Shown in pieces: positions 8,436 to 30,618 of a stretch of DNA of 32,000 bases. This DNA comes from Stigmatella ashevillensis (lineage in GTDB: Bacteria; Myxococcota; Myxococcia; Myxococcales; Myxococcaceae), in contig NZ_JAQNDM010000002.1 of the NCBI RefSeq assembly GCF_028368975.1, forward strand, positions 3,186,425-3,218,424, in the 5' to 3' direction. Made by a program: the position numbers and the translations under genes. The stretch's first letter is position 1, and the number at the start of each line of letters is the position of its first letter. The notes below the pieces were generated by a model, which was not told the DNA's origin, made no database searches, and was given only the letters and a program-made list of their open reading frames with translations.

Positions 8436-8536
8436 GTGAGGACTCTACCTCTGTCTGGCTGGCTGCCCTGCAAGGGGCCTTCAGAAAAAAGGTAAGGCCT
8501 GCTTGTGGAGGGGGCACAAGCGGTTATCTCGAAGAC

Positions 8537-8737
8537 ATGACTGGATTCCAGCCCCGATCCGAGGTGAGCGAGTACACGATTCCGGAAGGATGCCCGGGGT
8601 GCGGTGCCGACCTGCCCGTGCGTGTGTCCGAGAAGGGCGCCATGAGCGTGTGCACCCACTGCCACTGGATGGGACGGCCCGTATTGACCGTCACCCACCG
8701 GGGCCTGAGCGTGGAAGTGAAGGCCCTCCAGGCCTGA
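8537..8737 (+). CDS. Small zinc-ribbon-like hypothetical protein
   Basis: 66 aa; CPGCGADL...CTHCHWMG paired CxxC motifs; isolated ATG ORF divergent from the kinase gene. Confidence 0.6.
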   Translation: MTGFQPRSEVSEYTIPEGCPGCGADLPVRVSEKGAMSVCTHCHWMGRPVLTVTHRGLSVEVKALQA

Positions 8738-8763
8738 TAAGCGCCCAGCCCGCCGATGGCCGC

Positions 8764-9225: not shown

Positions 9226-9239
9226 CCCACCCCTCCTGC

Positions 9240-13333: not shown

Positions 13334-14295
13334 GAAGGTTCTAGCGCAGCGCGTTTGAGGGTGTCCTTCAGCTCTGGAGGCAACCTCGCCTCCACCGTCA
13401 CCTTCCCGCCGTGCTGGGGGTGCGGAAATTCGATGCGCTCCGCGTGCAGGAACAAACGCTTCAACCCCCACCGGGCCCGCACATCCCGGTTGAAGGCAAA
13501 GTCACCATACTTCCTGTCTCCAGCCACGGGGTGACCAACAGCGGCCAGATGCCTTCTTATCTGATGGGTGCGTCCTGTCTCGATGGAGCAGGAGAGGAGC
13601 GCCGCCTCGCTCGACTGGCGGATGACCTTCCACCGGGTGAGGGCCTCCTGCATGTTCACCCCCCGGCGGGCCTTGGACTCGGCGGTCTGCTGGTGCTCCG
13701 AGAGGGGAAGTTCGATGACCCCCGAGTCCTTGGGCATCTTGCCCTTGACCAGGGTGATGTAGCGCTTGCGGGCAAGGCCTTCCGTGAACACTTCGGTGAA
13801 GTGCACCATCGCCGGGCGGCGCTTGGCCACGAGGATGACGCCCGAGGTCTCCCGGTCCAGCCGGTGGGCAGGTGAGGCGGTGAAGTCGTTTCTCACCGCC
13901 TTGGGGCCCAGGTAGGCACGCACATAGTCCACCAGGGTTCCCCCGGTAATCCCGCTCCCGGTGTGCACGGCCATGCCGCTGGGCTTGTCCACGGCCATCA
14001 TCCAGTCGTCCTCCAGGAGGATGACCAGCTCGGAGGGGTCCACGGGGGGTGGGGGGGGAGGCAGGCGCTCGCCGCCCTGGGCCGGGCCGAGCAGTTGCTG
14101 CTCATCCCCCCGGATGGCGATGACGTCCCCGGCGACGAGCAGCTGCTCGGGCTGGGCCCGTTTTCCGTTCACCCGGACCTTCTTGACCCGGATCATCTTG
14201 AACAGATGACTGGTGGGCATGTTGGCCAGGCGTTTGCGGAGGTACTTGTCCAGCCGCATCCCCACACTGTCTTCTTCGATTCGGTACTCGATCAT
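13330..14295 (-). CDS. RluA family pseudouridine synthase (S4 domain + catalytic domain)
   Basis: RLDKYLRKRL S4 motif, VDKPSGMAVHTGSG, HRLDRETSGVILVAK catalytic motif, RTHQIRRHLAAVGHPVAGDRKYG. 4-nt ATGA overlap with the PBP1A gene. Confidence 0.95.
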   Translation of the reverse strand: MIEYRIEEDSVGMRLDKYLRKRLANMPTSHLFKMIRVKKVRVNGKRAQPEQLLVAGDVIAIRGDEQQLLGPAQGGERLPPPPPPVDPSELVILLEDDWMMAVDKPSGMAVHTGSGITGGTLVDYVRAYLGPKAVRNDFTASPAHRLDRETSGVILVAKRRPAMVHFTEVFTEGLARKRYITLVKGKMPKDSGVIELPLSEHQQTAESKARRGVNMQEALTRWKVIRQSSEAALLSCSIETGRTHQIRRHLAAVGHPVAGDRKYGDFAFNRDVRARWGLKRLFLHAERIEFPHPQHGGKVTVEARLPPELKDTLKRAALEPS

Positions 14296-14340
14296 TTGTT
14301 CTTGGCGGCCGGACCAGAGCACACGAATAATGACCGGTCC

Positions 14341-15801
14341 ATGCCGAAGGCTCCCAGTATCGAGAAGCTCCTCCAGAGCGGTTCAGCGGAGTGGAACAAG
14401 CTCCGCAAGTCCGGACAGGTCTCCACCGACCACACGGGCGCTACCTTCACGCAGCTGTTCTCCGCCAATGCGGACCTCTCGGGCCTAGAGCTCGTGGGCT
14501 CCGAATGGGAGCGCTGCGACCTGTCCAAGATGAACTTCCGCGACGCGGACCTGTCCAACGCCTACTTCCATGGCGGCCGGCTCCAGGACTGTGACTTCCG
14601 CGGGGCCAACCTCGAGGGCGCCACCTTCGAGAAGTTGAAGTTGCTGCGCTGTGACTTCACGGGCGCCAAGGGGCTGGACGACCTGGAAATGGAGGATGTG
14701 GACATGGACCGGGTGCAGGGCCTGGACGGCGAGGAAGCCCCGCCCCCGCCCCCGCCCCCCGCCCAGGGCATCACCGCCTTCACCCGCGAGCAGCGGGAGA
14801 AGGCCATGGGGGCCGCCGCGGCCGCCGTGGCAGGCCCCGCCGCGGAGGAGCTGCCCCCCTTCAAGCCCCAGGATCCTCCGGGCTCACTGCTCTTCCGGGC
14901 CTTGAAGCGGCTCCCGGCGCCGCCCCCCTGGGTGCTGGACGTCCCCGGCCTGCGCCCGTTGCTCCCGCAGCGCCTGCCCCCCGGCTCCTCGCTGGAGGCG
15001 ATGTACCGCGAGGCGGTGAAGACGCGGCTGGAGAACAAGAAGCCCGGGGCGGACCCGGGCGCGGTGGAGCGGGCGCAGAAGGCGCTGCGGCTGGGCGGGA
15101 AGGACTCGGCCGTGGCGGCCATGTACCTGCGCGAGGTGGGCGTGCTCCCGCTGTCGCGCTTCTCCGCGGCCAAGGTGCTCAAGGATGCGCTGCGCGCCGA
15201 GGTGGATGTGGATGATCTGACGGGCTCCATCGACCCGCGGGTGGCCGGGGCGCTCTTGGAGCTGCGGCTGACGCACGAGGTGGTGGAGCACCTGCAAGAG
15301 GCCCGGCGCCGCCTGGCCGCCACGCAGCTCTACACCGCGCTGCTGGAGGCGGGCTTCACCCCGGAGAACAACTGGGACGAAGCGCTGGAGTCGGCCGAGC
15401 CCGCCCTGGAGCTGGCACAACTGGCCACGGGCGATGACCGCAACGCGCTCTTCGAGGCCTTCCAGGTGTTCGCCGCCCTGCCGGACGAGGCCCGGCTGCG
15501 GCGGTTGGCGTACCTGGCCGAGACGGTGACGAACCTGGAGCTGGTGAGCCGACTGCCCGAGGGCATGGAGCCGCAGTGGCTCACCGGGCCCGAGACGCGC
15601 GAGTGCCACGACCGGGAGATGACGTACGTTCAGGCGCTCCGGGCACAGGACATTCCCACCAAGGTGCCCGCCCTGGCCCAGGCAGAGCTCGGCGTTCCCG
15701 AGGGTCAGGTGCCCGAGGACAGCGACGACGACCTGTTCGTCCACCTGCGCTGTGACGTGTGCGGCAAGGAGAAGCTCATCGTTCAATCCCGGATCGACTG
15801 A
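14341..15801 (+). CDS. Pentapeptide-repeat-containing protein with long alpha-helical C-terminal region
   Basis: MPKAPSIEKLLQSGSAEWNKLRKS...; ANADLSGLELVGSEWERCDLSKMNFRDADLSNAYFHGGRLQDCDFRGANLEGATF A(D/N)LXX repeats, Pro-rich linker PPPPPPP. Start trimmed from the 612-aa ORF. Confidence 0.85.
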   Translation: MPKAPSIEKLLQSGSAEWNKLRKSGQVSTDHTGATFTQLFSANADLSGLELVGSEWERCDLSKMNFRDADLSNAYFHGGRLQDCDFRGANLEGATFEKLKLLRCDFTGAKGLDDLEMEDVDMDRVQGLDGEEAPPPPPPPAQGITAFTREQREKAMGAAAAAVAGPAAEELPPFKPQDPPGSLLFRALKRLPAPPPWVLDVPGLRPLLPQRLPPGSSLEAMYREAVKTRLENKKPGADPGAVERAQKALRLGGKDSAVAAMYLREVGVLPLSRFSAAKVLKDALRAEVDVDDLTGSIDPRVAGALLELRLTHEVVEHLQEARRRLAATQLYTALLEAGFTPENNWDEALESAEPALELAQLATGDDRNALFEAFQVFAALPDEARLRRLAYLAETVTNLELVSRLPEGMEPQWLTGPETRECHDREMTYVQALRAQDIPTKVPALAQAELGVPEGQVPEDSDDDLFVHLRCDVCGKEKLIVQSRID

Positions 15802-15817
15802 GCCGGGCATCCTTCCC

Positions 15818-15839
15818 CCCTCCCGTGCAGGGGGGAGGG
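15818..15839. terminator. Inverted repeat between convergent genes, possible bidirectional terminator
   Basis: CCCTCCC (15818-15824) / GGGAGGG (15833-15839) stem with 8-nt loop in the 55-bp gap between convergent CDSs; no clear T-tract. Confidence 0.35.
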
Positions 15840-15856
15840 CCCTCTGCGTGGCGGAC

Positions 15857-16429
15857 TCAAGGCAAGGAGTACGTCACGGCGGGGGGCAGCAGAATCCTCA
15901 CCGGGTCTCCTGGCCGGATGACGCCCGGGCGATCCACCCACCCCACCAGCCCTCGCCGCTGGTGCGCGGCCTTCACGAAGCGGCTCGCCAGGCCTTCCCG
16001 GTCCGGATACCAGGGCTGCAGCGCCCGCCCCGCCTTCCGGCACGGCGTGTTCTCCCCTTCCATCGTCAGGATGACCTCTTCGGGGAAGAACAGGCGCGTC
16101 CCGGGAGGCAGGTGCGTCAGCCGGGGCACCCCCGCCAGCTCCAGGTTCGCGCCCAGCCAGGCCGCCTCCACCCGGGGCACCTCCAGCGCCGCCGCGATGA
16201 GCGCCAGTTCCTCCGTGGACACGAGGGAGACCTGGCGCGTGTTGCGCACGAGCGCGCCCTTGGGACACCAGGGCGTGCGCACATCCGACGTGCGTGTCAG
16301 CCCCGCGTGCCGGTCTCCCACGAAACCTTCCAGGGACACCTTCCCCTCGGGCACCTCGCGCGCAGGGTGATTCTTTGGCTCGGAGCCGATGAGGACGCGA
16401 ACCGTGTGCCCGGTGAGGTGCGTGCGCAT
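15857..16429 (-). CDS. MOSC domain-containing protein
   Basis: EGKVSLEGFVGDRHAGLTRTSDVRTPWCPKGALVRNTRQVSLVS, LGANLELAG, GENTPCRKAGRALQP: MOSC fold motifs including the conserved Cys. Start trimmed to ATG 16429. Confidence 0.85.
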   Translation of the reverse strand: MRTHLTGHTVRVLIGSEPKNHPAREVPEGKVSLEGFVGDRHAGLTRTSDVRTPWCPKGALVRNTRQVSLVSTEELALIAAALEVPRVEAAWLGANLELAGVPRLTHLPPGTRLFFPEEVILTMEGENTPCRKAGRALQPWYPDREGLASRFVKAAHQRRGLVGWVDRPGVIRPGDPVRILLPPAVTYSLP

Positions 16430-16437
16430 GAAGGGCC

Positions 16438-17412
16438 TCAGAAGAGCGAGAGCTGCTGGGGCTTGCCCAGCGTGCGCGCGTCGATGCCTTCCTCCCGCAG
16501 CAGCCGCGCCAGCTCCTCCGCGAAGCCGTGGTGCGTGATGACCTCGCGAGCCCCCGTGGCCTTCACATAGCCCACCAGCGAGGGGCAGTCCGCATGGTCC
16601 GAGAGGGGAAAGGCCACCTGCGCGCCATAGCGATGCGCGGCGCCTGGATCCAACGCCCACCCCGTGAGCACCGCGGTGGCGCGCGGCCACACGGGCGCCA
16701 GGGCCCCCGTGCGCGCCTGATGCGGTGGGAAGAAGAGCACCTCTCCCGGCTGCACCGTCCCCTCGAAGCGCCGCAGCGGCTCGATGCGCACGCCCAGCTC
16801 CGCGTAGAGCTGTGTCACCTCGAAGATGGAGGGGTGCGCCACCAGCGGGAAGCCGCGTCCAGAGAGGTACTTCATCGCCTCCTGGCTCTTGCCCAGGGGA
16901 TAGCCCAGCAACACGGGCACCGCCCCCCGTTCGAGCTGCTGGCGCACCCACGCCTCCACCCTGCCCAGCACTTCGTCCTTCGGCGGAAAGCGGTACCGCG
17001 GATGGCCGAACGTGGCCTCGATGACGAGCGTGTCGCACTCGGCCACCTGCACCGGCTCCGCCGTGAGCGAGGGCGTGACGTTCAGATCCCCCGTATAGAC
17101 GATGCGACGCCCATCCCCCCGGATGACGCGGAGCTGGGCACTGCCCAGGATGTGGCCCGCCGAGAGCAACTCCAACGTCAGGGGACCCAGCTCGAACGGC
17201 TGGTTGTAGGCCACCGCCACCGGGTCCTTCACCCGGCCCAGCCGGTGCGTCATGAAGCGCAGGGTGGCGGCCGTGGCGATGGTCCGCTCATGGCGCGCGA
17301 TGTGGTCCGAGTGCCCGTGGCTGACGAAGGACAGCGGCGTCTTGCGCATCGCATCCAGCGCCAGCGGGGTACCCGTCAGGTGAAGTCCGGTTCGCCTCAA
17401 CTCGACGCTCAT
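16438..17412 (-). CDS. Metallo-beta-lactamase-fold exonuclease-like protein (COG1236/YSH1-type)
   Basis: LSFVSHGHSDHIARH (HxHxDH), SAGHILGSAQLRV, RIVYTGDLN, LVIEATFGHPRYRFP, FPLSDHADCPSLVGYV, HHGFAEEL: beta-CASP-like motifs. Confidence 0.88.
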   Translation of the reverse strand: MSVELRRTGLHLTGTPLALDAMRKTPLSFVSHGHSDHIARHERTIATAATLRFMTHRLGRVKDPVAVAYNQPFELGPLTLELLSAGHILGSAQLRVIRGDGRRIVYTGDLNVTPSLTAEPVQVAECDTLVIEATFGHPRYRFPPKDEVLGRVEAWVRQQLERGAVPVLLGYPLGKSQEAMKYLSGRGFPLVAHPSIFEVTQLYAELGVRIEPLRRFEGTVQPGEVLFFPPHQARTGALAPVWPRATAVLTGWALDPGAAHRYGAQVAFPLSDHADCPSLVGYVKATGAREVITHHGFAEELARLLREEGIDARTLGKPQQLSLF

Positions 17413-17502
17413 GGGGAAGCCTGGATATAGCGCGCCTGGGACCGCAGGGGGGGACATGCTCCACGACGCGCCCGCCCGCCCGTCCGCCCTGCCTGCGAAA
17501 CC

Positions 17503-18420
17503 TCAGGCCCCCGCCAGGGGCCGCTCGCGCCAGCGGTCCCACAAGGCCGAGCCCACCTCCGACACCAGCACGCCCAGCACGATGAGGCTGCCCCCGCTCC
17601 ACTCCCGGGGGCCCAGCGTCTCGTATCCCAGCGACACCGAGAAGAGCGCGGCGAACACCGGCTCCAGCGCATAGATGAGGGCCGCGCGCACCGCGCCCGT
17701 GCGGGCCTGGGCCCACGTCTGCACGCTGATCGCGACGGCGCTGCCGAGGACGCCACAGAAGAACACGGCCCCCACGAAAGCCCCTGTCCACGCCACCCGC
17801 GTCTCCACGAAGGGCAGGCACGCCGCCGAGAGCAGCGCCACGCCCCAGAGCTGCACGGCGACGAGCGCGCTGGCCCCTTCCTTCGGCGCGAACCGCCCCG
17901 TCAGGACAATGTGGAGGGCATAGGACACCGAGCCCGCCAGCGTGAGCAGGTCTCCCGAGGAGATCCCCCCGGAGGCCTCCTCGCCCGCGTGCGTGAGAAA
18001 GAAGAGCCCCACGGTCGAGAGCACCACCCCCACCAGCGAGGGGACGCGAGGAACCCGGCGAAAGAGCACCAAGGTCAGCAGCGGAACGAAGAGGACACAC
18101 AGGCCCGTGATGAAGGCCGAGCGCGCGGGCGAGGTGTGCGTCAGCCCCACCGTCTGAAACACGTACCCGCTGAAGAGGAAGAGGGACAGCAGGCCCCCTC
18201 GCCGCAGGTAATCCCCGGAGAGCATCCGCCGCCCCGCCACGGCGCTCAGCACCACGGCCCCCAGGCCAAAGCGCAGCACGAGGAACGAGAAGGGATCTCC
18301 ATGGCCCAACGCGTCCTTCACCACCACGAAGGTGGTGCCCCAAAACACGGTGAGCAGCGCCAGGGCGCCGTCCGCCTGGAGATGGGCGCGACGCTCCCGC
18401 GGTGAAGTCACTTCGGCCAT
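17503..18420 (-). CDS. EamA/DMT family transporter
   Basis: Ten hydrophobic segments; GALALLTVFWGTTFVVVKDAL, GSVSYALHIVLTGRFAP, AALIYALEPVFAALFSV. Start trimmed to ATG 18420. Confidence 0.9.
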   Translation of the reverse strand: MAEVTSPRERRAHLQADGALALLTVFWGTTFVVVKDALGHGDPFSFLVLRFGLGAVVLSAVAGRRMLSGDYLRRGGLLSLFLFSGYVFQTVGLTHTSPARSAFITGLCVLFVPLLTLVLFRRVPRVPSLVGVVLSTVGLFFLTHAGEEASGGISSGDLLTLAGSVSYALHIVLTGRFAPKEGASALVAVQLWGVALLSAACLPFVETRVAWTGAFVGAVFFCGVLGSAVAISVQTWAQARTGAVRAALIYALEPVFAALFSVSLGYETLGPREWSGGSLIVLGVLVSEVGSALWDRWRERPLAGA

Positions 18421-18454
18421 GACGGAGGTCCAGCTAGCACACTTCCCTCGCCCA

Positions 18455-19420
18455 TCAATCCAATGCGCGCTCCAACACCACCAAGGGCTTGCTGCCCCCC
18501 GAGGCATCCCACTCGGCGTTGACCCGCCGGATAAGCTCTGGGGGCGAGAAGCGAAACCCCACCCTCCGGAACGTCCTCAGGGAGGCGGCGTTGTCCTCAT
18601 CGACATCCGCGAAGATGCATTCCTCGCCCTGCTTTCGCGCCGCTTCCACCAGACAGGTAAGGAGCTGGTGGGCCACCCCCATCCTCCGGGCTCTCGGCGC
18701 CACCACCAACGAGCGGACCCAGAGCCCGTCCAGCGCCAGCCCTTCCTCGCGGTAGCTGTCCAGGTAGGCGAACCCACACAGGCGGCCCGCCGAGTCGAAG
18801 GCTCCCGCCGAAGCCCCCACCGCCCCTCCCTCCCGCGCCCACCGGCCCAGCAGTTGGCGGCGCAGGAACACCGAGGAGACCAGGAGCCGTTCCCCGGCGA
18901 ACACCAGGAGCGCGTCCAGATCCTCGGCCCGAAGCAGGCGCACCTCCAGCCGCCCCAACCACCGCGCCCGCACGGGGCGGGACCACCCCGAGAAGGTGAA
19001 GTCCCGCAGCCGCCGAGCCGCGCCCCTCGCCACGGGACGGGCCCACAACGCGGAAGCCAACCGCTGCCCCAGAAAGAGCGAAGGCCGCGTCACGCGGGGC
19101 AAGGGCAAAATCCACCACCCCCGGCGCAGGGCCGTCACACGCCCGAGCGGAACTCCCTCGGGATCTCCGTGGCCCAGCAAGGAGGCCGTCACCAAGGGGC
19201 CCGTGGAAACCACCACGTGCGCGATGAGCCGACGCCCCACCCTCACCAGCGCCACATCGCCCCGGGACAGCTCCTCCGGCCCACAGCGAAGCACCTGGAT
19301 CGAATCTCCGCTGCGCAGCAAGGGATACAGGCTCCGGCCCGCCCCTCGCAGCCAGAGCCGACGGCCCAGAGACGTGGACTCGACGAAGGCCGCGAGATCA
19401 ACCGGGTGTGTGCCAACCAT
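18455..19420 (-). CDS. S24/S26 peptidase-like domain fused to a GNAT N-acetyltransferase
   Basis: N-term: GRSLYPLLRSGDSIQVLRCGPEELSRGDVALVRVGRRLIAHVVV (GxSxxPxxxxGD...); C-term: LWVRSLVVAPRARRMGVAHQLLTCLVEAARKQG...ADVDEDNAASLRTFRRVGF (GNAT acetyl-CoA motif). Confidence 0.8.
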   Translation of the reverse strand: MVGTHPVDLAAFVESTSLGRRLWLRGAGRSLYPLLRSGDSIQVLRCGPEELSRGDVALVRVGRRLIAHVVVSTGPLVTASLLGHGDPEGVPLGRVTALRRGWWILPLPRVTRPSLFLGQRLASALWARPVARGAARRLRDFTFSGWSRPVRARWLGRLEVRLLRAEDLDALLVFAGERLLVSSVFLRRQLLGRWAREGGAVGASAGAFDSAGRLCGFAYLDSYREEGLALDGLWVRSLVVAPRARRMGVAHQLLTCLVEAARKQGEECIFADVDEDNAASLRTFRRVGFRFSPPELIRRVNAEWDASGGSKPLVVLERALD

Positions 19421-20165
19421 GAAGCCAGTCCCTCACGAAGCCCGCCGCGGCGGCGTCCTTCCGGAAGACGAACCTGCGGATTTCGACACATGAGAGGATG
19501 CGAACCAACCGCTGGAGCACCTCCCCCTGCGACGCCTCGCCCGGCAGCGGACGGAAGACCTGCGCCATCATCGCCGCAATGGCCTCGGGGGCTGCCACCG
19601 CCTCCAACCGCTCCTCGCCGCCCTTCTCCAGCAACAGCACCGCGGCCAACTGCGCCCGGGCGAGCGACGAGGGCAGATCCAGATCCGAGCAGAACGGGCT
19701 GCCCTCGACGCGCGCCCCGGGGTAGAGCCCGAGCACTTCGTCCGAGAGCACTTCGGCCCCGGCCTCCCGGGCGCACAGCCGGGTGAAGGTGGACTTGCCC
19801 GCCCCGCTGGGCCCGATGGCCACCACCGCCCGTCCCTGGAAGGCCACCCCGGCGGCATGCAGCAACAGGCCTCCCTGGCGCAGCGTGGCCAGTTGCATCC
19901 CCACCCGCAGCGCCAGTTCAGTATCTAGGAAGGCCTGAGGGGGCTCCACCCGCACCACATCGCCCTCTACCCGGAAGCGGGGACCCGAGGGCCGACGAGG
20001 GTCGAGGGGCATGCTCGGCCCCTCGGGCAAGGCCCCCGCCCGGAGACTCAGGCGGGGAGCGCCGTCTTCGGCCAGGAACGGGGCCAACGCGCACCGTGCC
20101 CCTACCTGGGTCAGCAGCCCCTCATCCACTCCCACGCTCCACTCCCCGAACCGCAGTCGCCGCAT
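19398..20165 (-). CDS. HPr kinase/phosphorylase C-terminal-like P-loop protein
   Basis: LLLHAAGVAFQGRAVVAIGPSGAGKSTFTRLCA...VLSDEVLGLYPGARVEGSPF: Walker A GPSGAGKST at 19788-19814, and the 'lsDE.v.l..' element seen in HprK-like proteins of RiPP loci. Confidence 0.85.
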   Translation of the reverse strand: MRRLRFGEWSVGVDEGLLTQVGARCALAPFLAEDGAPRLSLRAGALPEGPSMPLDPRRPSGPRFRVEGDVVRVEPPQAFLDTELALRVGMQLATLRQGGLLLHAAGVAFQGRAVVAIGPSGAGKSTFTRLCAREAGAEVLSDEVLGLYPGARVEGSPFCSDLDLPSSLARAQLAAVLLLEKGGEERLEAVAAPEAIAAMMAQVFRPLPGEASQGEVLQRLVRILSCVEIRRFVFRKDAAAAGFVRDWLHGWHTPG

Positions 20166-20184
20166 CCGGGACCCTGCCGCCTCT

Positions 20185-20322
20185 TCAGCAGGCCCCCGTC
20201 TCTGGATCGATGATGCAGCTGGGCGTGAAGAGGTCCGGAACGAGAATCCGCTCCGAGCGCACCTGGGGAGGGGCGTAAGCCTTCTTCTTCTCCGCCTTCA
20301 CCGGCTGCACCGTGGTTGCCAT
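20185..20322 (-). CDS. 45-aa putative RiPP precursor peptide
   Basis: MATTVQPVKAEKKKAYAPPQVRSERILVPDLFTPSCIIDPETGAC; Lys-rich leader, YxPPxV motif, C-terminal Cys36 and Cys45; Shine-Dalgarno AAGGAG 3 nt upstream of ATG; located between PqqD/giant lipoprotein and HprK-like genes. Confidence 0.75.
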   Translation of the reverse strand: MATTVQPVKAEKKKAYAPPQVRSERILVPDLFTPSCIIDPETGAC

Positions 20323-20325
20323 GGT

Positions 20326-20331
20326 CTCCTT
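20326..20331 (-). promoter_or_regulatory. Shine-Dalgarno of the precursor peptide, overlapping the stop codon of the giant lipoprotein gene
   Basis: Minus strand reads TAT TAC TAA GGAG ACC ATG: stop TAA at 20332-20330 shares two bases with AAGGAG. Confidence 0.65.
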
Positions 20332-23300
20332 AGTAATACACCACGACCCGGGCTGGATTCGACTGACTATCACCCACGGCCAGGTCCATTTTTCCATCCC
20401 CGTTGAAGTCCAGAATGGTCAAACTGATTCCAAGCGACGTCGTGGATGCCAGCTTGGACTGCCAGAAGCCATTCTCCTGGGCAAGGTCGAACTCGGCCCC
20501 CGGAATGCCCTGGTTGTAGAAGACGGCCGCGGCGTTCTGCCCGACGACGTTCTGGCCCACGGCGATGTCGACGCGTCCATCTCCGTTCAAGTCCCCCAGG
20601 GCCAGGGCGTTGCCGAAACGGCCGCCACCGACGATCTCCACCGGCGCCGTGGGGAAGCCCGAAGGGCCTCCATCCCGGAACACGAAGACCTTGCTCTGGG
20701 TGGCCGAGGAGGCCACCAGATCCAGCCCCGCGCCCCCCACCAGGTTCACCCCGCCAAAGGCCTCGGTGCCAAAGCCGTTCTGCGAGTTGCCGGTCGTATC
20801 GGGCCCCTGGTGAATCACCTGGAGCGCGTCCGTCGTGGACACGTTCCGGCCCAGGGCGTGAACCGCGGCGCCTGAATAGACATAGAGGTTGTTGACCCGC
20901 TCATGGGAGGCCGGGACGGTGAAATCCGCGACGCCATCGCCCGTGATGTCCCCCAGGCGCACGTAGCCACGGGAGCGTCCGAAGAAGACCATCCCCGTGG
21001 GGGCCGTGAAGACCTTGTCGGACTTGCTCGTGGGCACGACGCAGGCGGAGGTGGCGTTGCAGCCTGTTCCCAAGGCCCGCCAAGCCTCCGGCGTGCGGCT
21101 GTAGAAGAGGTAGACCTTTCCGGGCGTCTCGCCGTGCGAGCTGAGCAGCAGCTCATGAAGCCCGTCCCCGTTGATGTCCTGGATCATCTTCACCGAGCCG
21201 CCCAGCGTGGCCCCGGTGATGGCCGTGTCATGCCGGAACTCGATGGGGGCCGTCGTGTCCAGCACCTGGCCCTTCCGGCCAAAGTAGAGGAACGCCCGGC
21301 CGGAGTTGGACGTCCAGCCACGAGAGCCCACCAGCAGGTCCGCCACCGGCTCCGAGGTGGCGTTGCCGACATCACCGACATCGAAGTCACTCCCATAGGC
21401 TTGAGCGCCCGTCTCCGGGACCGTCAATTCCTGCCGAACCGGCGGGGAGCCCACCGGATCGCTGCTGCCGTAGTACACGTACGCCGAGCCCGGATTGCCC
21501 AGGACGCCTGTCACGATCAGGTCTTCCCTGCCATCCGCGTTCAGATCTCCCCGGGCGGTAATATAGGTGGCGTAGCTGTTGCTCGGGACGCCTGGGTTCG
21601 TCACCGTCACCTGCCGCCAGAAGTTGTCGATCTGTGGCTGCACCGCGAAGGGCGCGTAGTTGCCAATCTCGTCCCGGGGACGGAGCTGGATGGAGTAACG
21701 GGCCAGGGGCGGCAACGTCAGCGTGTAGGCCGTGGACGTGGCAGGCAGCAGCGCTCCCGTTTCCTGCTTCACCTTCCCGCCGAAGAAGGTCGCCTCGTTC
21801 TCGATGCCGTTCAGAAGCTGGGCGTTGACCGTCCACCGCAGGTCATAGCCCACCCCCATGCCGGACAGCCCGTCATCTCCACTCGCCGTCCACGACACCT
21901 GCACCTTGGCCGCCCGCTCCTGGCCGGGCACCAACGCCATCGTCACGGTGGGCGCCGCGGGAGGCACCACGTCCACGGTGGCCGTGACGGTGTGGCGCGC
22001 CGTGTTCCCGGACGCATCCACCACGCGCACCTCGAGCGTGCCATCCGTGTTGTGCGGCAACGTCACGGGAAGCTCCAGGGTCTCCGGCGAGGCGGAGATC
22101 GTGAACTCCGAGGAGACGGAAGCTCCCTTGTAGAGCGCCTGCACCGTGCTGCCCACGCCCTGCGTCACGGTGAGTGTGAACACCGCATTGGCATCCCCGC
22201 CCGGGGACATGTCCACCACGCGGTCCGGTGCAGGAGATGGGAAGAGATAGGCGTTGGTGCTCGCGACGAAGAAGAGCGCCGTGGGGGAGGGAGAGATGGA
22301 GGTGATGAGCGGGGGCGTGATGTCCACCGTCACGTCCACGAAGTCGACAGCCCTCAGCCCCGAGATGTTGAACACCTCCACGGCCAGGCGTGTCTGATCG
22401 CCGTCCGCGAGCGTCACATCGAAGAAGAACGCCCCCGTCGCCGGATCCGCGGTGACGGCATCCTCCGGTGTGGTCGAGCCTCCCTTGTAGAGAATCACCT
22501 CGCGGCCATTGCATGCCGGCGTGATACCGGCCAGGCGGTACTGCAACCCCGCCGCCGAGGGGTCCAGATCGTCCTGGGCAAGCAACGTGGCCACCGGCTC
22601 ACTCGGCGTGGTGAGCGTGATGGCACAGCCAGGGATTTTCACATCGACGTTGGCCTTGGAATCACTGCCCGCGTTTCCAGCGGTATCACGGGCCACGGCC
22701 GAGACGGTCTGCACGCCCACGGGGAAGTTGAGCGTGCCTTGCGCGACTCCCGAGACGACCGGCAGGGTCCCCACCACCGCGGCGGGAGCGCTCCCCACCT
22801 GCGAGAGGATGCTCACCGTGCTCACGTCCCCTCCTGCCACATTGACCTGAACGGGGATGTCCGTGTTGTCGTAGACAGCGCTCGCCGCGGGGGCCACCAG
22901 CGTCACGGTGGGGGCTTCCAGATCCACCGTCAGGGTCCGGACCACCGAGGTCTCGTTGCCCGAGGTGTCCACGGCAACCACCGAGAGCGTGTACTCCGTC
23001 TTGCCTGTGCCCGGCACGGTGAACTCATGCGTGGCCACCAGCTCGGAAGGCGTCAGCGACACCGGATTTCCCCCCGGGGAGAGCAACATCCGCACACCGC
23101 CCGCGCCCACGTCCGCGCTCGTGTTGATGGCCGCCCGGAGCTGGAAGCCGACGGCCGTCGAGCCGTCATCCGCGAGGCCGAACTCGGTGCGCGTGGGCGC
23201 GCTCACCACCAACGAAGGCGGGACTCGGTCCAGGCGGAAGGCGAAGAAGGCCGCCGTGTTGAGCGGATAGAAGGGGGTCGGATTGAGCACCCGGTTCTGA

Positions 23301-26134
23301 TTGCCCGCAGCGTCCGTCACGGTCACGACGAGCGCGTAGTCCGCCTCGATACCGGTGGGCATCGCATCGAGGGAGACGGTGGCCAGGCCACCGCCGGCAT
23401 TGCCCTGGCCATAGACGATGCCGGGATTGCTGGCGTTGCGAACCTGGACCGGCCGCCCATCTTCCAGACCGTCAATGGTCACCCGGAGCTGCACGGAGCC
23501 TGTGGGCCACTCGACGGCATTCAGCCGCCGATCCCCGTTGACGTCTCCCACCAGTTCCACGGCACGCACCACCGGCTCGGTGCTGTCCACGGTGATGTTC
23601 ACCGACTGAGACACGGAGATGGCCCCGTCGTCGAGAACGGCGCGCAGGGCGTAGCGCCCATCGGGGTAGGTGAAATCCGGGGTGAAGGCCGGCACGTTGG
23701 CGGCCAGGGTGTACCAGCCCGAGCCATCCCGGCAGGGCGCGGCATCCTGGCTCGGCGCCACGCTCGCGCAGATGTCCACGACGGCGTTCGCCGAACGTCC
23801 ATTCGCGGCGTACTTCAGGGGCGCCTGGATGCCCGACTCCTCGGGCGTGACGTCGGAGTTCACGACGTAGACCGGGGCGGGGGAAGCCGCGGGAATCTCC
23901 AGGGCGATGTTGCCCGGCTGGGTGTCCACCAGGAGCAGCACCGTGGCGCAGGCCACCGTGCCTCCGGGGCCGATGAGCTCGGCGCGCAGCACGTTGGAGC
24001 CCTCTTCCAGCTCCACGGTGTTGAACCGCTTCGTCCGCTCGTTCGCGGCGACATCCACCACGGCGATCTCGGTGGCCCCGCGCAGCAATCGCAGCTTGCT
24101 GGCCGCCTGGGTGTCCACGCTCAGGGTGACCGAGACACTCAACCCGCCGTTGGGCAGCACGATGCCATCCGTGGCCCCCAGGTACCGGCCAATCGCGGGG
24201 GTCTCGAAGGCCAGCGAACTCGGAGAGAAGGCCAGGGTCAGCGCCCGGACTTGCTCGCTGGTGTTGCCCGCCAGATCCGTGGAGGCGACTTGCAACAGAC
24301 ATTCGCCGCTGAGCGGCACGGAGACGTCCCTCAACACGAGCGCCCCGTGGTCATCGGCCTGTCCCGCCACCCCCGCGGCCAGGGCGCACCCCGTGACGAG
24401 CACCGAGGCGTACGGCTCGGTCTCCACCTCGAGGGCCACTTGCATGCCCGGAGCCAGAGACGTGTCGTTGAGCCCGAAGCCCAGAACAGTCTCTCCGGCG
24501 GGCACACCGCGCACCTGGAACGCCAGCACCGGCGGCGTGGAGTCCAGCTCCAGGGAGAGCAGCTGACTCGTGGCGCCCCCTGGACAGGAGGCCAGGAGCC
24601 GGTACGCGCCATCGCTCTCCAAGAGGAGCGAAACCAGCGCCGACCCCGAAGATGCGACGGCGGTGCTCCGTCCCCGCTCATTGCCATTCACATCCAAGGC
24701 CACCACGGTGACCGGCCCGGCCCCCGACTCCACGCGGACCGAGGTGTTCATGCCCGTGGTGGGAATCAGGGTGCCATTGTCCGGCGAGATGATGCGGCAG
24801 ACGGGCTGGCCCGTGGTGACCGTGACGGTCTCCGCCAGGCACTGCTCCAAACCCGCTGCATTGCGGACACAGGCCTGAACGGCATTGGCGCCCCCCGCCA
24901 GTTGCACGGTGAAGGCCGCCTCGCGCCCACCGTTCGTCACCGCCCGCTGCGGCTGGGCGAACTTGCCGGTGACGCTGGTGAAGAGCGTCACCTGGGTGCC
25001 AGGAGGCAGCGAGTCCACCTGGACGGTCACCGGTACCTGCACGCCGTTGTCGAGCCGGCCGTCCACCGGATCCTCCGAGAGGCTCTTCGGCACCACCAAT
25101 TTGAGGGTTGGCGTCGTGCTGGCCACCGTGACGGGAACCTGCCGGGTGGAGACATTGCCCCCCGCATCGGAGACTTTCAGCGTGAAGAGGTAATCCCCAT
25201 CCACCGGCACCGTGACGGCGGGGAACGTCACGCCTCCGGAAATGACGGGGGCGGACAGATCCGGCGCGCCAACCCGGGACAGGGTGGCCAACACACCGGG
25301 CTCGGTACACCCCACGGTGGCCTCCACCCGGAACGTCGTGGACGCCACCGCCGCCACTGGCCAGGCCAGTTCCACGCGCGGAGACACCGTGTCCAACGTG
25401 ATGTGGCGCCGGCCGGACGTCACCTCGTCATCGCCATTGCGGACCACCGCGTAGCACTGGGCTTCCTGGGACTCGCATGCGAACTGGGACAGCGTCACCT
25501 CGACCTGGGTGGCCCCATTGCCCGCCACGGTGAAGTCCGTGGGAGGCACCCCACACGCCTGCTCGCAATAGATCGTGCCCTTTCTTCCCGACAGGCCCAC
25601 GGCATTCACGCTGAAGCGCAGCTGGTAGCCGGGCGAATCCGGGTTCGCGTCATCCGCCTCGAGCAGCACCTCGCCTTCGGGGGGCTGCGTCAGATCCACC
25701 GATGGCGGCTCCGAGGTCACCGTGACGCTGATGCGCTGGGTGGCCGTGCGCCGCGAGCTGGCCTCCTCCACCGTCACCTGCAGCACGTTGGTGCGCGACT
25801 GCAACAGCGCCGCCGGGAAGCGGGCCGTGTCCCCCTCGATGAGGGCCTTGGGCCCCTCCGTCCATCCCTGCTCGGACGGCGTGCGCACCTCCAGCTTCGC
25901 GCTGGCCAGCTTCACCGCCCGGCCCGAGGTGTCCCGGGCCCGCACCACCACCTCGTGCTGGAAGCCGTCGGTGGCCGTGTCCTCATCATCGGAGAGCACC
26001 AGCCGCTGCCCGTCCACGGGCTTCTCGAACCCCACCTCCAGCTCCGACTCCACCGGTGGCTCGCCGCAGCTGCATCCGGACGCACTCCACAGCGCGAGCC
26101 CCATCAACAGCCACTGCCACATCGATCGGCGCAT
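20330..26134 (-). CDS. Giant surface lipoprotein: N-terminal/central Ig-like modules plus C-terminal FG-GAP/VCBS beta-propeller
   Basis: MRRSMWQWLLMGLALWSASGC lipobox signal with GGGAG SD; recurrent 'DTTPP...VTVSVT' Ig-like modules; C-term blades DLNADGREDLIV, ADLLVGSRG, DINGDGLHELLL, DITGDGVADFTV, GLDLVASS, DLNGDGRVDIAV, DFNGDGKMDLAV. ORF track start (GTG 26203) gives GTGA overlap with the upstream gene; ATG 26134 gives a proper signal peptide. Confidence 0.88.
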   Translation of the reverse strand: MRRSMWQWLLMGLALWSASGCSCGEPPVESELEVGFEKPVDGQRLVLSDDEDTATDGFQHEVVVRARDTSGRAVKLASAKLEVRTPSEQGWTEGPKALIEGDTARFPAALLQSRTNVLQVTVEEASSRRTATQRISVTVTSEPPSVDLTQPPEGEVLLEADDANPDSPGYQLRFSVNAVGLSGRKGTIYCEQACGVPPTDFTVAGNGATQVEVTLSQFACESQEAQCYAVVRNGDDEVTSGRRHITLDTVSPRVELAWPVAAVASTTFRVEATVGCTEPGVLATLSRVGAPDLSAPVISGGVTFPAVTVPVDGDYLFTLKVSDAGGNVSTRQVPVTVASTTPTLKLVVPKSLSEDPVDGRLDNGVQVPVTVQVDSLPPGTQVTLFTSVTGKFAQPQRAVTNGGREAAFTVQLAGGANAVQACVRNAAGLEQCLAETVTVTTGQPVCRIISPDNGTLIPTTGMNTSVRVESGAGPVTVVALDVNGNERGRSTAVASSGSALVSLLLESDGAYRLLASCPGGATSQLLSLELDSTPPVLAFQVRGVPAGETVLGFGLNDTSLAPGMQVALEVETEPYASVLVTGCALAAGVAGQADDHGALVLRDVSVPLSGECLLQVASTDLAGNTSEQVRALTLAFSPSSLAFETPAIGRYLGATDGIVLPNGGLSVSVTLSVDTQAASKLRLLRGATEIAVVDVAANERTKRFNTVELEEGSNVLRAELIGPGGTVACATVLLLVDTQPGNIALEIPAASPAPVYVVNSDVTPEESGIQAPLKYAANGRSANAVVDICASVAPSQDAAPCRDGSGWYTLAANVPAFTPDFTYPDGRYALRAVLDDGAISVSQSVNITVDSTEPVVRAVELVGDVNGDRRLNAVEWPTGSVQLRVTIDGLEDGRPVQVRNASNPGIVYGQGNAGGGLATVSLDAMPTGIEADYALVVTVTDAAGNQNRVLNPTPFYPLNTAAFFAFRLDRVPPSLVVSAPTRTEFGLADDGSTAVGFQLRAAINTSADVGAGGVRMLLSPGGNPVSLTPSELVATHEFTVPGTGKTEYTLSVVAVDTSGNETSVVRTLTVDLEAPTVTLVAPAASAVYDNTDIPVQVNVAGGDVSTVSILSQVGSAPAAVVGTLPVVSGVAQGTLNFPVGVQTVSAVARDTAGNAGSDSKANVDVKIPGCAITLTTPSEPVATLLAQDDLDPSAAGLQYRLAGITPACNGREVILYKGGSTTPEDAVTADPATGAFFFDVTLADGDQTRLAVEVFNISGLRAVDFVDVTVDITPPLITSISPSPTALFFVASTNAYLFPSPAPDRVVDMSPGGDANAVFTLTVTQGVGSTVQALYKGASVSSEFTISASPETLELPVTLPHNTDGTLEVRVVDASGNTARHTVTATVDVVPPAAPTVTMALVPGQERAAKVQVSWTASGDDGLSGMGVGYDLRWTVNAQLLNGIENEATFFGGKVKQETGALLPATSTAYTLTLPPLARYSIQLRPRDEIGNYAPFAVQPQIDNFWRQVTVTNPGVPSNSYATYITARGDLNADGREDLIVTGVLGNPGSAYVYYGSSDPVGSPPVRQELTVPETGAQAYGSDFDVGDVGNATSEPVADLLVGSRGWTSNSGRAFLYFGRKGQVLDTTAPIEFRHDTAITGATLGGSVKMIQDINGDGLHELLLSSHGETPGKVYLFYSRTPEAWRALGTGCNATSACVVPTSKSDKVFTAPTGMVFFGRSRGYVRLGDITGDGVADFTVPASHERVNNLYVYSGAAVHALGRNVSTTDALQVIHQGPDTTGNSQNGFGTEAFGGVNLVGGAGLDLVASSATQSKVFVFRDGGPSGFPTAPVEIVGGGRFGNALALGDLNGDGRVDIAVGQNVVGQNAAAVFYNQGIPGAEFDLAQENGFWQSKLASTTSLGISLTILDFNGDGKMDLAVGDSQSNPARVVVYY

Positions 26135-26199
26135 TCGTCTCCCACCCTCTCCAGCGGCAGGCCGTGGGCCTGCGGCTCGCGACATCAGCGCAAGGGACC

Positions 26200-26550
26200 T
26201 CACGGCCCCAGCACCAGCACCTTCTTCGCCACGAGGAGCCGGAGGAAGGCGACCGTGTCCGCTTCACACGCCTCCGGTTCCACCTCGAATTCGTCACACA
26301 GCACCGCCACGATGTCCGCCACCGTCCGGCGGCCATCCACCAACTCCACGATGCGCTCGGCCACCTCGGACACCTGACCCCGGGCGTCCTCGAACAGGTG
26401 CAGGTGCTCATCGGGCCCCGCAGCCATCAGCCGCCCACCCACGCGCTGCACCCCCGTCTCCGGATGCAGCCGAGGCACGGCGCGCAGCACCTCCCGGCCC
26501 GCCTCCGCGGGAGCTTTCGTTCCATCTTTGTTGGAAACGAATCCAGCCAC
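26200..26550 (-). CDS. PqqD family protein (RiPP recognition element)
   Basis: RLHPETGVQRVGGRLMAAGPDEHLHLFEDARGQVSEVAERIVELVDGRRTVADIVAVLCDEFEVEPEACEADTVAFLRLLVAKKVLVLG fits the PqqD pattern (lvdG.rtv.div..l..ef...v...d...fl..l...g.l); GTG start with GGGAG upstream. Confidence 0.82.
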   Translation of the reverse strand: MAGFVSNKDGTKAPAEAGREVLRAVPRLHPETGVQRVGGRLMAAGPDEHLHLFEDARGQVSEVAERIVELVDGRRTVADIVAVLCDEFEVEPEACEADTVAFLRLLVAKKVLVLGP

Positions 26551-26800
26551 TTGAATCTCCCGGAGGCCTGCCCCCCGGCCTGGAGCTTCCCGGCCTCACG
26601 GAATCTGAAGGCATGCTATCCGCGAAGATCCGGCCCGGCCAAATCCCTGATCTCCTCAGTCCCCTCACGGATCAAGGTTTTGGAAGAAATCCCCGGAACT
26701 CCCCAGGGCCCGCACAAGGATTTGGGCGGAAACCGCGAAACCGCTATGACGGGGCGGCGCCAGACTCCCACGAGGGAGGGCGACACGATGGGGAGGGCGG

Positions 26801-27376
26801 ATGAACACGACGCCGGAAGGCAACATGGCGCCACGGCAGGGCTGGTGGAGCCGCAATTGGAAGTGGGTCGTTCCTGTTGGCTGTCTGACACCCGTGCTGA
26901 TGTGCGGGTGTTTCGGGGCGCTCGTCTTCTACTTCGTCACGAGCACCATCAAGTCCACGGATGCCTACCAGCAGGCCGTCACCCTCGTTTCGGCGAACCC
27001 CGAAGTCCAGGAGGCGCTGGGCACCCCCATCGACTTCGGATGGCCGCGGGGCTCCGTGAACGCCACAAACGGAGAGGGCCGCGCCAGCGTCAGCGTGCCC
27101 GTCGAAGGCCCCAAGGGCAGCGGGACCTTGCGCCTCGAAGCCGTCTCGGAGGGCGAGAATTGGACCTTTGATCTGCTTCAAGTGGAGGTCCCCGGCAGGC
27201 CGGCCATCGATCTGATGGATCAGGTGGGCGGACGCCCGGAGCCGGAGCTGGAACCCCTCCCGGACGACGAACCGCCGCCCACGATGGATGAGGAGATGCT
27301 TCCCCCGGAAGAGGAAGTCCTCCCCCCCTCCGAAGAGGAAGCCCCCGCCAAGAAGGGCTCCGAGATCGACCTGTAG
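26801..27376 (+). CDS. Coa1-family (cytochrome c oxidase assembly factor-like) membrane protein
   Basis: [100 protein letters not shown]; acidic C-terminal tail. Confidence 0.75.
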
Positions 27377-27452
27377 CCCGCAACGCAAGAGGGGCGGCGC
27401 GGGCCTGAGCCTCGCACCACCCCTTCCGCGTGCCACACCGGAATGGACCGGC

Positions 27453-28418
27453 CTACTTCAGGGCGTGGAGCGCCTGGCGCAGCTCGGGCAGCACCTTGAA
27501 GAGATCCGCCACGAGGCCGTAATCGGCCACCTGGAAGATGGGGGCCTCGGCGTCCTTGTTGATGGCCACGATGGTCTTCGAGCTCTTCATGCCCGCCAGG
27601 TGCTGGATGGCACCGCTGATGCCCGCGGCGATGTAGAGCTGCGGGGCCACGACCTTGCCCGTCTGACCGATCTGCAAGTCGTTGGGCACCCAGCCGGCGT
27701 CACACACCGCGCGCGAGGCGCCCACCGCGGCGCCCAGCTCGTCGGCCAGGGCTTCAATCTCCTTGAAGTCACCCTTGGTGCCACGGCCACCGGACACCAC
27801 CACCCGGGCCTCGGTCAGCTCCGGACGGGCGCTCTTCACTTCCTTGAAGTCGATGAACTTCGTCTTGGACGGTTCGATCTTCGCGGTGAAGGTCTTCACC
27901 TCGGCGGCCGCCTGACCGCTGGCGGCGGCGGGGAACTCGGTGGCGCGCAGGCTGAGCACCTTCACGGGCGTGGTGAGCTTCACCTCGGCGATGACGTTGC
28001 CGGCCCACATGGGGCGGGTGAAGGTGACGTCCGCGCCACTGCCGTTGATGGCGGTGACGTCGGTGGCCATGGCGGCCTTGAGGCGGGCGGCCACGCGGGG
28101 CAACAGGTCCTTGCCCAGGGCGGTGGAGGCCGCGCCCACGTAGTCGGCCTTCAGCTCCTGCGCCAGGGTGGCGACGACAGGGGCGTAGACCTCGGCCAGG
28201 TAGTGCTCGAACTCGGGGGCCGCGGCGGTGTGCACCGCCTTGGCGCCCAGGCCCTTGAGCTCCTCGGCCAGCTTGGAAGGATCCTTGGACAGCAGCACCA
28301 GGTGCAGCTCGGCGCCCGCCTTCTGCGCCAGCTGGCTGCCGGCGGAGATGGCGTTGAGGGTGGCCTTGCGCAGGTTCCCGTCAGGTTGCTGCTCGGCGAC
28401 GATGAGAACGATCGGCAT
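27453..28418 (-). CDS. etfA: Electron transfer flavoprotein alpha subunit
   Basis: [27 protein letters not shown]...[107 protein letters not shown]. Confidence 0.97.
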
Positions 28419-30511: not shown

Positions 30512-30618
30512 GCGTTCCTCGTGATTCGAGAGCGGAAGGAATGTTGCTGTTTTGACGAAGGGTGAAGAGTCGCAATACTGTTCGAACCCCCACGTTTTTC
30601 ATCAGGAGTTCACCCTTA

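Follow-up and report, generated by a model that had tools for sequence, protein, structure and literature searches.

Phosphorylated lasso peptides are a precedent for the gene set treated here, a candidate maturation cassette for a peptide made on the ribosome and modified after translation (RiPP) in Stigmatella ashevillensis. The cassette lies within 32,000 nt of contig NZ_JAQNDM010000002.1 (positions 3,186,425 to 3,218,424 of the forward strand), and this whole stretch is referred to as the window. In the bsf lasso cluster of Bradymonas sediminis, core Ser3 is the residue that the HPr-kinase-like enzyme BsfK phosphorylates, and a PqqD-type RiPP recognition element (RRE), BsfB1, strongly stimulates this reaction (PMC10368454). 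The essential motif of BsfK is H148-G163-G166-G168-K169-S170-D186-D187 (PMC10368454). Similarly, HPr-kinase homologues phosphorylate paeninodin-type precursors ahead of leader removal (PMC8498205). Lasso precursors carry a YxxPxL leader motif at positions -17 to -12 (PMC10368454). Another processed peptide is known from quinohemoprotein amine dehydrogenase (QHNDH): its Cys-rich gamma peptide has a 28-residue leader and is cross-linked by a radical S-adenosylmethionine (rSAM) enzyme. After a dedicated serine protease has trimmed it, the peptide is exported and joins the larger subunits of the enzyme (PMC7876137).

In the window, a PqqD-family RRE, a giant lipoprotein, a 45 aa peptide, an HPr-kinase-like protein of the ScmC family and an S24/S26-like peptidase domain (termed X) very probably form a RiPP-type maturation cassette with five members. 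This cassette would, in the reading that we prefer and consider probable, mature a phosphorylated, leader-cleaved and Cys-paired peptide that acts with the giant lipoprotein. The adjacent EamA transporter, metallo-beta-lactamase-fold (MBL) and MOSC genes are bystanders.

The candidate cassette and its conservation

An earlier note on this DNA, made from the letters alone, had proposed a RiPP-like system of six tightly packed genes extending from PqqD to an EamA exporter. All six minus-strand open reading frames (ORFs) are present where it had placed them. The features of the cassette are:

26200..26550, minus strand: PqqD-family RRE, 116 aa (PF05402).
20330..26134, minus strand: giant lipoprotein of about 1934 aa with a lipobox signal, immunoglobulin (Ig)-like arrays and a C-terminal FG-GAP beta-propeller (alternative GTG start at 26203).
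20185..20322, minus strand: precursor peptide, 45 aa, composed of the leader MATTVQPVKAEKKKAYAPPQVRSERILVPDLF and the predicted core TPSCIIDPETGAC (orthologous ORFs, ribosome-binding site).
19398..20165, minus strand: HPr-kinase-like P-loop phosphotransferase of the ScmC family, 255 aa, a candidate for a peptide kinase (PF27840 of homologues, structure model, BsfK match).
19085..19420, minus strand: S24/S26-like Ser/His peptidase domain X (X-GNAT residues 1-112), a candidate for the leader peptidase (motifs, profile).
18455..18952, minus strand: GNAT acetyltransferase domain, residues about 157-321 of X-GNAT, a lineage-specific add-on of uncertain membership (PF00583).

The spacings between these genes were checked directly on the sequence and agree with the earlier note. 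The stop codon of the giant gene (TAA, 20330-20332) is followed after 7 nt by the peptide ATG at 20322. The peptide stop (20185-20187) is 19 nt away from the ScmC ATG at 20165, and the ScmC gene (stop 19398-19400) overlaps the X-GNAT gene (ATG 19420) by 23 nt. The EamA ATG at 18420 lies 34 nt past the X-GNAT stop (18455-18457). Domain searches yielded clear Pfam matches for PqqD, FG-GAP, GNAT and EamA, as the note had expected; the HprK-like match is weak in a direct search, and the S24/S26 assignment stays below threshold. In accordance with what had been noted before, genes of the rSAM, YcaO, lanthipeptide, lasso B2/C and ATP-grasp types are absent from the whole window according to the same searches of its proteins.

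Homologous loci, designated by L-numbers, were gathered by homologue look-ups, a PqqD-seeded metagenome scan and tblastn mapping. PqqD, the giant gene, the peptide, ScmC and X are found together in approximately 13 loci, in three genomic contexts and in several gene orders. In the ETF/Coa1 context, to which the window belongs, the order is PqqD-giant-peptide-ScmC-X(GNAT). This context comprises also L006-L010 and L019-L024 from Stigmatella, Hyalangium, Archangium, Pyxidicoccus xibeiensis and several soil contigs. The COX15/UbiA context is represented by L014 with the order PqqD-giant-peptide-X-ScmC and by L034 with the order giant-peptide-ScmC-X::PqqD. L028 constitutes the third context, in which X was not seen; its peptide and ScmC genes are separated by two others, one for a beta-CASP MBL protein and one PanD-like (aspartate decarboxylase) (15912-17515). 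In L034, one uninterrupted 340 aa ORF (9296-10318) comprises the peptidase domain, a degenerate GNAT-like linker and the PqqD RRE. By analogy, this is a Rosetta-stone fusion that follows the same logic as lasso B proteins (B1 RRE plus B2 protease).

Given its conservation over about 13 loci, the arrangement is far beyond chance. It is hardly credible that the small ORF is no gene and that its neighbours are unrelated. Most Myxococcaceae/Archangiaceae loci share the ETF/Coa1 context, and their conservation could be vertical, but the same set recurs in other contexts and orders and with a gene fusion. In addition, substitutions in the peptide are biased towards synonymous ones, its gene has a strong ribosome-binding site, and the leader motif recurs in distant rSAM-type loci. 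The RiPP-like unit of PqqD RRE, short Cys-containing precursor and HPr-kinase-like enzyme that the earlier note had postulated is conserved as such: the three genes co-occur elsewhere, in three contexts and several orders. The giant FG-GAP lipoprotein and the S24/S26-like domain, which it had counted as members, are kept with the cassette.

The precursor peptide

The small ORF is located downstream of the giant gene in every family I cassette locus, at a distance of 7-15 nt. In the window, the 7-nt gap between the giant stop and the peptide ATG contains an AAGGAG Shine-Dalgarno sequence. Orthologous peptide ORFs were found in L006-L010, L014, L019-L021, L023, L024, L028 and L034; in all, there are 14 orthologous peptides. 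They share the N-terminal consensus ...KK-x-Y-x-P-P-x-V-R-S-E-[RK]-[IL]-L-V-P-[DN]-L-F, and the C-terminal 13-30 residues are hypervariable. Over 20 codons, the leaders of window and L020 differ by 8 synonymous changes and by 0 nonsynonymous ones; as judged from the codon changes, it evolves under purifying selection. The 45 aa ORF, whose conservation the earlier note had regarded as decisive, is thus conserved.

The window leader contains Y16-A-P-P19-Q-V21. This YxxPxV motif matches the lasso-type YxxPxL. Since it would occupy the lasso position -17 to -12, the border between leader and core can be placed at Thr33: 17 residues counted from Tyr16 lead to a core start at Thr33, exactly at the border between conserved and variable residues. 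The leader would then encompass 32 residues (20227-20322) and the predicted core 13 residues (20188-20226).

All cores for which Cys residues were counted have an even number of them (2, 2, 2, 2, 2, 2, 4, 4, 6, 6, 4 and 6). They represent eight independent core designs, for which random parity would yield this result in about 1 in 256 cases. As the counts are all even, the Cys residues are presumably paired, and we infer an oxidising, extracytoplasmic destination. A Ser or Thr at core position 3 followed by Cys4 is recurrent (TPSC, QPSC, SPSC, ATTC, MITC, MVTC).

The window core also contains Asp7 and Glu9, positions used for lasso macrolactams. Together with the lasso-like leader motif, the RRE and the kinase (PMC10368454), this could suggest a split lasso pathway, with the genes for cyclase C and B2 protease at another place in the genome. 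We regard such a split as very improbable. Neither an Asn-synthetase-like cyclase gene (C) nor a transglutaminase-like Cys protease gene (B2) is present in the window or in any cassette locus. Furthermore, L010 and L023 cores lack Asp/Glu at positions 7-9, the L023 core being devoid of any Asp/Glu, and a different protease type is conserved, in L034 even fused to the RRE. A lasso pathway was therefore rejected on the grounds of the absent C and B2 genes and the acceptor residue missing in some cores.

PqqD and the HPr-kinase-like protein ScmC

PqqD matches PF05402 with an E-value of 5e-13 (49.6 bits vs a cut-off of 23.4) and the lasso and pyrroloquinoline quinone (PQQ) PqqD models weakly. It is kept at 54-93% identity in all cassette loci. 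For comparison with the bsf cluster, the published genes were translated and aligned with the window proteins. PqqD of the window and the lasso RRE BsfB1 share 27% identity, and both precursors align in register: KLIYKKPQL...IIR|GTS in bsf and KKAYAPPQV...DLF|TPS in the window.

ScmC is 93% identical to its homologue in S. aurantiaca DW4/3-1. Direct library matches are weak (TIGR04352 1.5e-6, TIGR04249 0.0035, TIGR04355 weak). On homologues of 40-93% identity, PF27840 (ScmC) is precomputed, with one of these marked weak. An AlphaFold2 (AF2) model based on 19 homologues has a pLDDT of 94 and a pTM of 0.90. In Foldseek, this model matches ATP-dependent PEP carboxykinases (PEPCK, E 9e-7) and HprK/P (E 4e-4), which belong to one fold superfamily. 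Among ScmC homologues of 27-93% identity, H103, G118, S120, G121, G123, K124, S125 and T126 are invariant and D142 is nearly so. The lasso-precursor kinase BsfK matches positions 88-240 of the family profile with a score of 55 bits. In this alignment, H103, G118, G121, G123, K124, S125 and D142-E143 line up with all residues of the BsfK catalytic motif (H-x14-G-x2-G-x-G-K-S ... D-[DE]). Because of these parallels of enzyme, RRE and precursor to BsfK, BsfB1 and their substrate, as well as to the paeninodin-type kinases, ScmC is proposed as an RRE-assisted peptide kinase acting close to the core's N-terminus. Homology tips the balance somewhat in favour of this assignment.

Alternatively, ScmC could be an ATP-dependent adaptor or chaperone that presents the leader together with PqqD, so that the product would be trimmed and disulfide-bonded but free of phosphate. 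The Ser/Thr in the core is not strictly kept, and the rSAM-type relatives described below retain ScmC although their [AG]-C-x-K cores have no Ser/Thr at positions 2-3. In addition, lasso leader removal is itself ATP-dependent, as stated in a review (PMC9266682). We consider an adaptor role improbable, as the full phosphotransfer motif of characterised precursor kinases (H, GxxGxGKS, D-[DE]) is kept and the members of the fold family are phosphotransferases.

The S24/S26-like domain X and its GNAT fusion

X contains two boxes, G-R-S30-L-Y-P-L-L-x3-G-D and I-A-H68-V-V, and is all-beta in the AF2 model. PF00717 scores 12.4 bits on X (threshold 23.3) and is weak in 8/10 family members, with a best E-value of 0.003. 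A profile of the domain has 87 relatives, 41 of which carry PF00717 and several of which are named signal peptidase I or S24/S26 peptidase. A stand-alone X homologue in L016 aligns with human SEC11A over the Ser, His and Asp boxes. When the profile was compared with PDB sequences, spurious DARPin matches came out on top, and signal peptidase I, SEC11C and SEC11A had E-values of about 0.2-1.7.

Each of the 13 cassette loci retains the putative catalytic Ser and His of X. In three genomes, namely M. xanthus (L013), C. exiguus (L015) and P. parkwayensis (L038), Coa1 is directly followed by X-GNAT-EamA-MBL-MOSC, and PqqD, giant gene, peptide and ScmC are all missing. In two of these three, C. exiguus and P. 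parkwayensis, Ser/His of X are replaced by Cys/Gln. In total, among the 89 full-length X-GNAT homologues that were scored (95 retrieved), 19 show substitutions of these residues, all of them Myxococcus/Corallococcus/Pyxidicoccus-like. At the sequence level, this pattern of Ser/His retention ties peptidase chemistry to the cassette, and X is the probable leader peptidase. No literature report was found of an S24/S26 peptidase in such a role.

The GNAT half matches PF00583 (3e-13, 50.5 bits vs 20.7), and its best Foldseek matches are GNATs, including the N-alpha-acetyltransferases RimI, Ard1 and Naa60. It is full-length in the ETF context only. In L014, L034 and a paralogue in L010 it is truncated, and the L016 peptidase lacks it; the three cassette-less genomes retain it in full length. 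Acetylation as a general step, which the earlier note had considered, can therefore not be maintained; it would be at most a lineage-specific extra, as GNAT is truncated or absent in the COX15-context and rSAM-type loci. PqqD, ScmC and X-GNAT have no transmembrane segment, so that maturation would be cytoplasmic.

The L010 paralogue is a second, GNAT-truncated peptidase (254 aa, GRSMAP...VAHLV) that adjoins a Cu-monooxygenase-like gene, a caspase-like Peptidase_C14 gene, an extracytoplasmic function (ECF) sigma factor gene and DUF2807. This neighbourhood (12029-18231) may be a second system with the same peptidase type. In P. parkwayensis, a trio of Peptidase_C14, an unknown gene and an ECF sigma gene a few kb upstream of the ETF genes (L038, 1-1747) resembles this set.

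The giant lipoprotein and the wider ScmC-PqqD family

The giant protein matches FG-GAP and FG-GAP_3 (about 1e-18) as well as the Ig-like models Big_13 and Big_3_2. Its gene adjoins PqqD in every locus that is long enough to show it. The PqqD stop (26200-26202) indeed overlaps the GTG at 26203 that had been noted as a possible start, but ATG 26134 appears to be the likelier one. It is preceded by GGGAG, and the predicted start MRRSMWQWLLMGLALWSASGC is the same as that called in S. aurantiaca. With a start at 26134, the protein has a lipoprotein signal (MRRSMWQWLLMGLALWSASG-C), and all orthologues keep the lipobox Cys. A literature search for PqqD in combination with FG-GAP returned the bsf lasso paper alone (PMC10368454). 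In that paper, an FG-GAP repeat protein bordering the bsf cluster is called 'presumably not involved' (PMC10368454); it may deserve a second look.

An ScmC profile search yielded 867 clusters (50% identity) at E <= 1e-30. A scan of the genome collection with the ScmC alignment and a P-loop pattern had five very distant HprK-like loci (L001-L005) among the matches listed. Distant ScmC homologues of 27-31% identity in L011, L012 and L016 are encoded beside a generic rSAM or rSAM/SPASM maturase. A PqqD gene accompanies them in L012 and L016, whereas L011 showed none. Because these distant relatives add an rSAM/SPASM enzyme, the window cassette is an rSAM-less branch of a large ScmC-PqqD family. 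No relevant literature on the function of the ScmC/SynChlorMet family or on HPr kinases together with SPASM enzymes was found, and a survey of conserved myxobacterial biosynthetic gene clusters mentions neither RiPPs nor RRE nor PqqD.

A small ORF is found in the rSAM-type loci as well, and its leader shows this motif again (PYVPPKIESE, PYTKPACVSEE and DYQAPRV). When the +17 rule is applied to these ORFs, all cores start with [AG]-C-x-K. In L012, the peptide ORF begins directly past the stop of the gene for a 1593 aa lipoprotein. This protein is colinear with the window giant, with the same CG[ED]xP start and Ig-like arrays, and 24% identical to it over 538 aa in the fn3/FG-GAP region. In L016, the peptide gene immediately precedes the gene for a secreted 767 aa PQQ-type beta-propeller protein, and a stand-alone S24/S26-like peptidase is encoded there as well. 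Beside the rSAM-type ScmC cassette of L016, an NTP_transf_5 (PF14907) gene is located (15982-17184). In the bsf lasso cluster, a predicted nucleotidyltransferase gene, bsfN, accompanies the kinase, and such an enzyme glycosylates the phosphorylated lasso peptide pseudomycoidin (PMC10368454, PMC8498205).

The peptide gene adjoins a large secreted beta-propeller gene in three architectures, and the 7-nt gap makes translational coupling likely. One of the partner subunits of QHNDH is a beta-propeller, too. Rather than a free natural product, the processed peptide could accordingly be a stoichiometric, cross-linked small subunit or a cofactor-like insert of the giant lipoprotein, for which QHNDH (PMC7876137) would be a precedent. 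The rSAM/SPASM enzymes of the cassette relatives would agree with it. We judge such a fate to be rather unlikely. Homologues of QhpD, QhpE, QhpF and QhpG and an ABC exporter are absent. Moreover, the core with its 13-30 residues is hypervariable whereas the giant is conserved, and for this reason a diversifying ligand or toxin is favoured over a QHNDH-like subunit.

Proposed maturation pathway

In the preferred reading, the PqqD RRE would bind the 32-residue leader through the lasso-like motif Y16-x-x-P19-x-V21. At the expense of ATP, ScmC would then phosphorylate a hydroxyl close to where the core begins, with Ser35, i.e. core Ser3, which adjoins Cys4, as the best candidate. Guided by the RRE, the cytoplasmic Ser30/His68 domain of X-GNAT would cut the leader after ...PDLF. 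In the lineage of the window, the fused GNAT may subsequently acetylate the new N-terminus. The 13-residue core would be exported and its two Cys residues would pair to form a disulfide loop. Finally, the product might act with the co-translated giant FG-GAP lipoprotein as a ligand, subunit or cargo of the beta-propeller; confidence in the fate of the product and in the role of the lipoprotein is low.

Several observations weigh against this pathway. No exporter was identified for the cassette, though disulfides and contact with the lipoprotein require export. A modifying enzyme such as an rSAM protein may be encoded elsewhere. When compared directly with curated kinase models, ScmC stays far below the cut-off, and core position 3 is not Ser/Thr in L009, L023 and L028. 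As to X, the S24/S26 assignment is sub-threshold in Pfam (PF00717 or PF10502), Foldseek of the X-GNAT model returned GNAT matches alone, and the 20 kb retrieved for L028 revealed no X domain. Furthermore, cassette-less M. xanthus still has Ser and His of X, and X-GNAT is conserved as a whole. Since M. xanthus retains this protein without the cassette, X-GNAT has some cassette-independent role.

Neighbouring genes and context of the window

The remaining features around the cassette are:

17503..18420, minus strand: EamA/drug-metabolite transporter (DMT), a syntenic neighbour and no consistent cassette member (PF00892, 1e-31).
16438..17457, minus strand: beta-CASP MBL-fold nuclease-like gene, a neighbour outside the system (TIGR04122).
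15857-16429, minus strand: MOSC-domain gene, a neighbour (homologous to the MOSC genes of L007, L008, L013 and L015).
26551..26800, no strand: divergent intergenic region of 250 nt from PqqD to the plus-strand Coa1-like gene, a probable promoter region (read from the sequence).

The earlier note had assigned all six genes to one system, with acetylation by GNAT and export by EamA as integral steps. The tight same-strand spacing in the window and the physical fusion of GNAT to the peptidase domain in the ETF-context loci would agree with it. However, X-GNAT, EamA, MBL and MOSC are present in the three cassette-less genomes, EamA is absent from four cassette loci (L010, L014, L023 and L034), and the GNAT half is shortened or missing in L014, L034 and L016. 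DMT transporters normally carry small metabolites, which also counts against peptide export by EamA. The six-gene version is, in our opinion, quite improbable.

As EamA, MBL and MOSC are found in cassette-less genomes, they are neighbours kept independently of the cassette. EamA was ruled out as a dedicated exporter by its distribution, and in this point the earlier proposal fails. The MBL gene was considered as a PqqB-like member and rejected: it belongs to the beta-CASP type, resembles a ligase-associated exonuclease (TIGR04122, 211 bits, below cut-off) and is present without the cassette.

Upstream of PqqD, the window has the divergent Coa1-like gene, both ETF genes (alpha and beta) and a gene for an acyl-CoA dehydrogenase; the beta-CASP MBL and MOSC genes are located downstream of EamA. 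The MOSC gene occupies an apparent 637-nt spacer between the MBL and pentapeptide-repeat genes; in S. aurantiaca DW4/3-1 (L006) it is deleted, and the flanks alone match. The plus-strand pentapeptide-repeat ORF (612 aa, 13963-15801) overlaps a minus-strand RluD-like pseudouridine synthase ORF (13330-14322). The S. aurantiaca counterpart of the pentapeptide gene encodes 486 aa, so that the start of the window ORF is probably over-extended. The long ORFs 8503-9498 (plus strand), 9821-10561, 30616-31812 and 3757-4986 (all minus strand) have no Pfam matches at E <= 0.001, and some of them may be non-coding shadows in GC-rich DNA. The GC content of the window is about 68%, and its X-GNAT protein shows 100% identity to one from Stigmatella sp. 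ncwal1. A consensus promoter/terminator scan, which is uninformative in GC-rich DNA, found no sigma-70-like site in 16000-27500. PADLOC (anti-phage defence), Rfam and tRNA scans of the window yielded zero matches.

Implications

Tentatively, the cassette may represent a new RiPP class in which an RRE-guided kinase and a soluble S24/S26 leader peptidase, without cyclase or rSAM enzyme, generate a phosphorylated, disulfide-looped ligand or subunit of an integrin-like FG-GAP lipoprotein. Confirmation of the product and of its partnership with the lipoprotein would amount to such a class. If the proposal is true, it would provide a RiPP-type pathway with a leader peptidase from the S24/S26 family, show that the lasso A/B1/K module can be re-used without the lasso machinery, and assign a concrete, testable function to the large uncharacterised ScmC-PqqD family. 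The constant pairing with a giant beta-propeller surface protein would suggest a peptide-receptor or peptide-subunit relation, which is rarely considered in RiPP mining. Such a peptide-adhesin pair could act in myxobacterial cell-cell or predator-prey recognition. M. xanthus, which is naturally cassette-less but encodes X-GNAT, is a convenient host for reconstitution.

Comparison with known systems

X shares with ER/archaeal-type S26B signal peptidases (SEC11, SipW) and LexA-type S24 peptidases the GxSMxP...GD Ser box, the xxHxV His box and an all-beta domain. In contrast to them, it is soluble and cytoplasmic, has no transmembrane anchor, occurs as a fusion with GNAT or PqqD and does not reach the Pfam threshold.

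The pair of an ScmC-type protein and PqqD is also found in the SynChlorMet (Scm) and HprK-related kinase A/B systems (TIGR04249, TIGR04248, TIGR04352, TIGR04355). However, the window proteins stay far below the NCBIfam equivalog cut-offs: 16.7 vs 125 bits for ScmC (TIGR04249), 20.5 vs 100 for ScmD (TIGR04248) and 27.6 vs 200 for HprK_rel_A. SynChlorMet has two rSAM/SPASM enzymes (ScmE and ScmF), L011, L012 and L016 have one each and the window has none.

By analogy, the QHNDH gamma-subunit pathway offers the best precedent for a processed Cys-rich peptide partnered with operon-encoded large subunits. In the qhp operon as in the cassette, a leader-bearing Cys-rich peptide is, or would be, processed in the cytoplasm by single-purpose enzymes, cut by a serine protease of its own and exported, and a large partner is encoded in the same operon. 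The window differs from it by the lack of homology to QhpC, D, E, F and G, of an rSAM enzyme and of an ABC exporter, and by the hypervariable core.

With the phosphorylated lasso modules, i.e. bsf and Paenibacillus paeninodin, the cassette has the Y-x-x-P-x-[LV] leader, a discrete PqqD-type RRE, the kinase motif and core Ser3 in common. It has neither a cyclase nor a transglutaminase-type B2; an S24/S26-like peptidase is the candidate instead. Its cores are Cys-paired, many of them without an Asp/Glu macrolactam acceptor, and a giant lipoprotein is the constant partner. Seen by analogy, the cassette would work like the A/B1/K part of phosphorylated lasso pathways, with another protease and without a cyclase.

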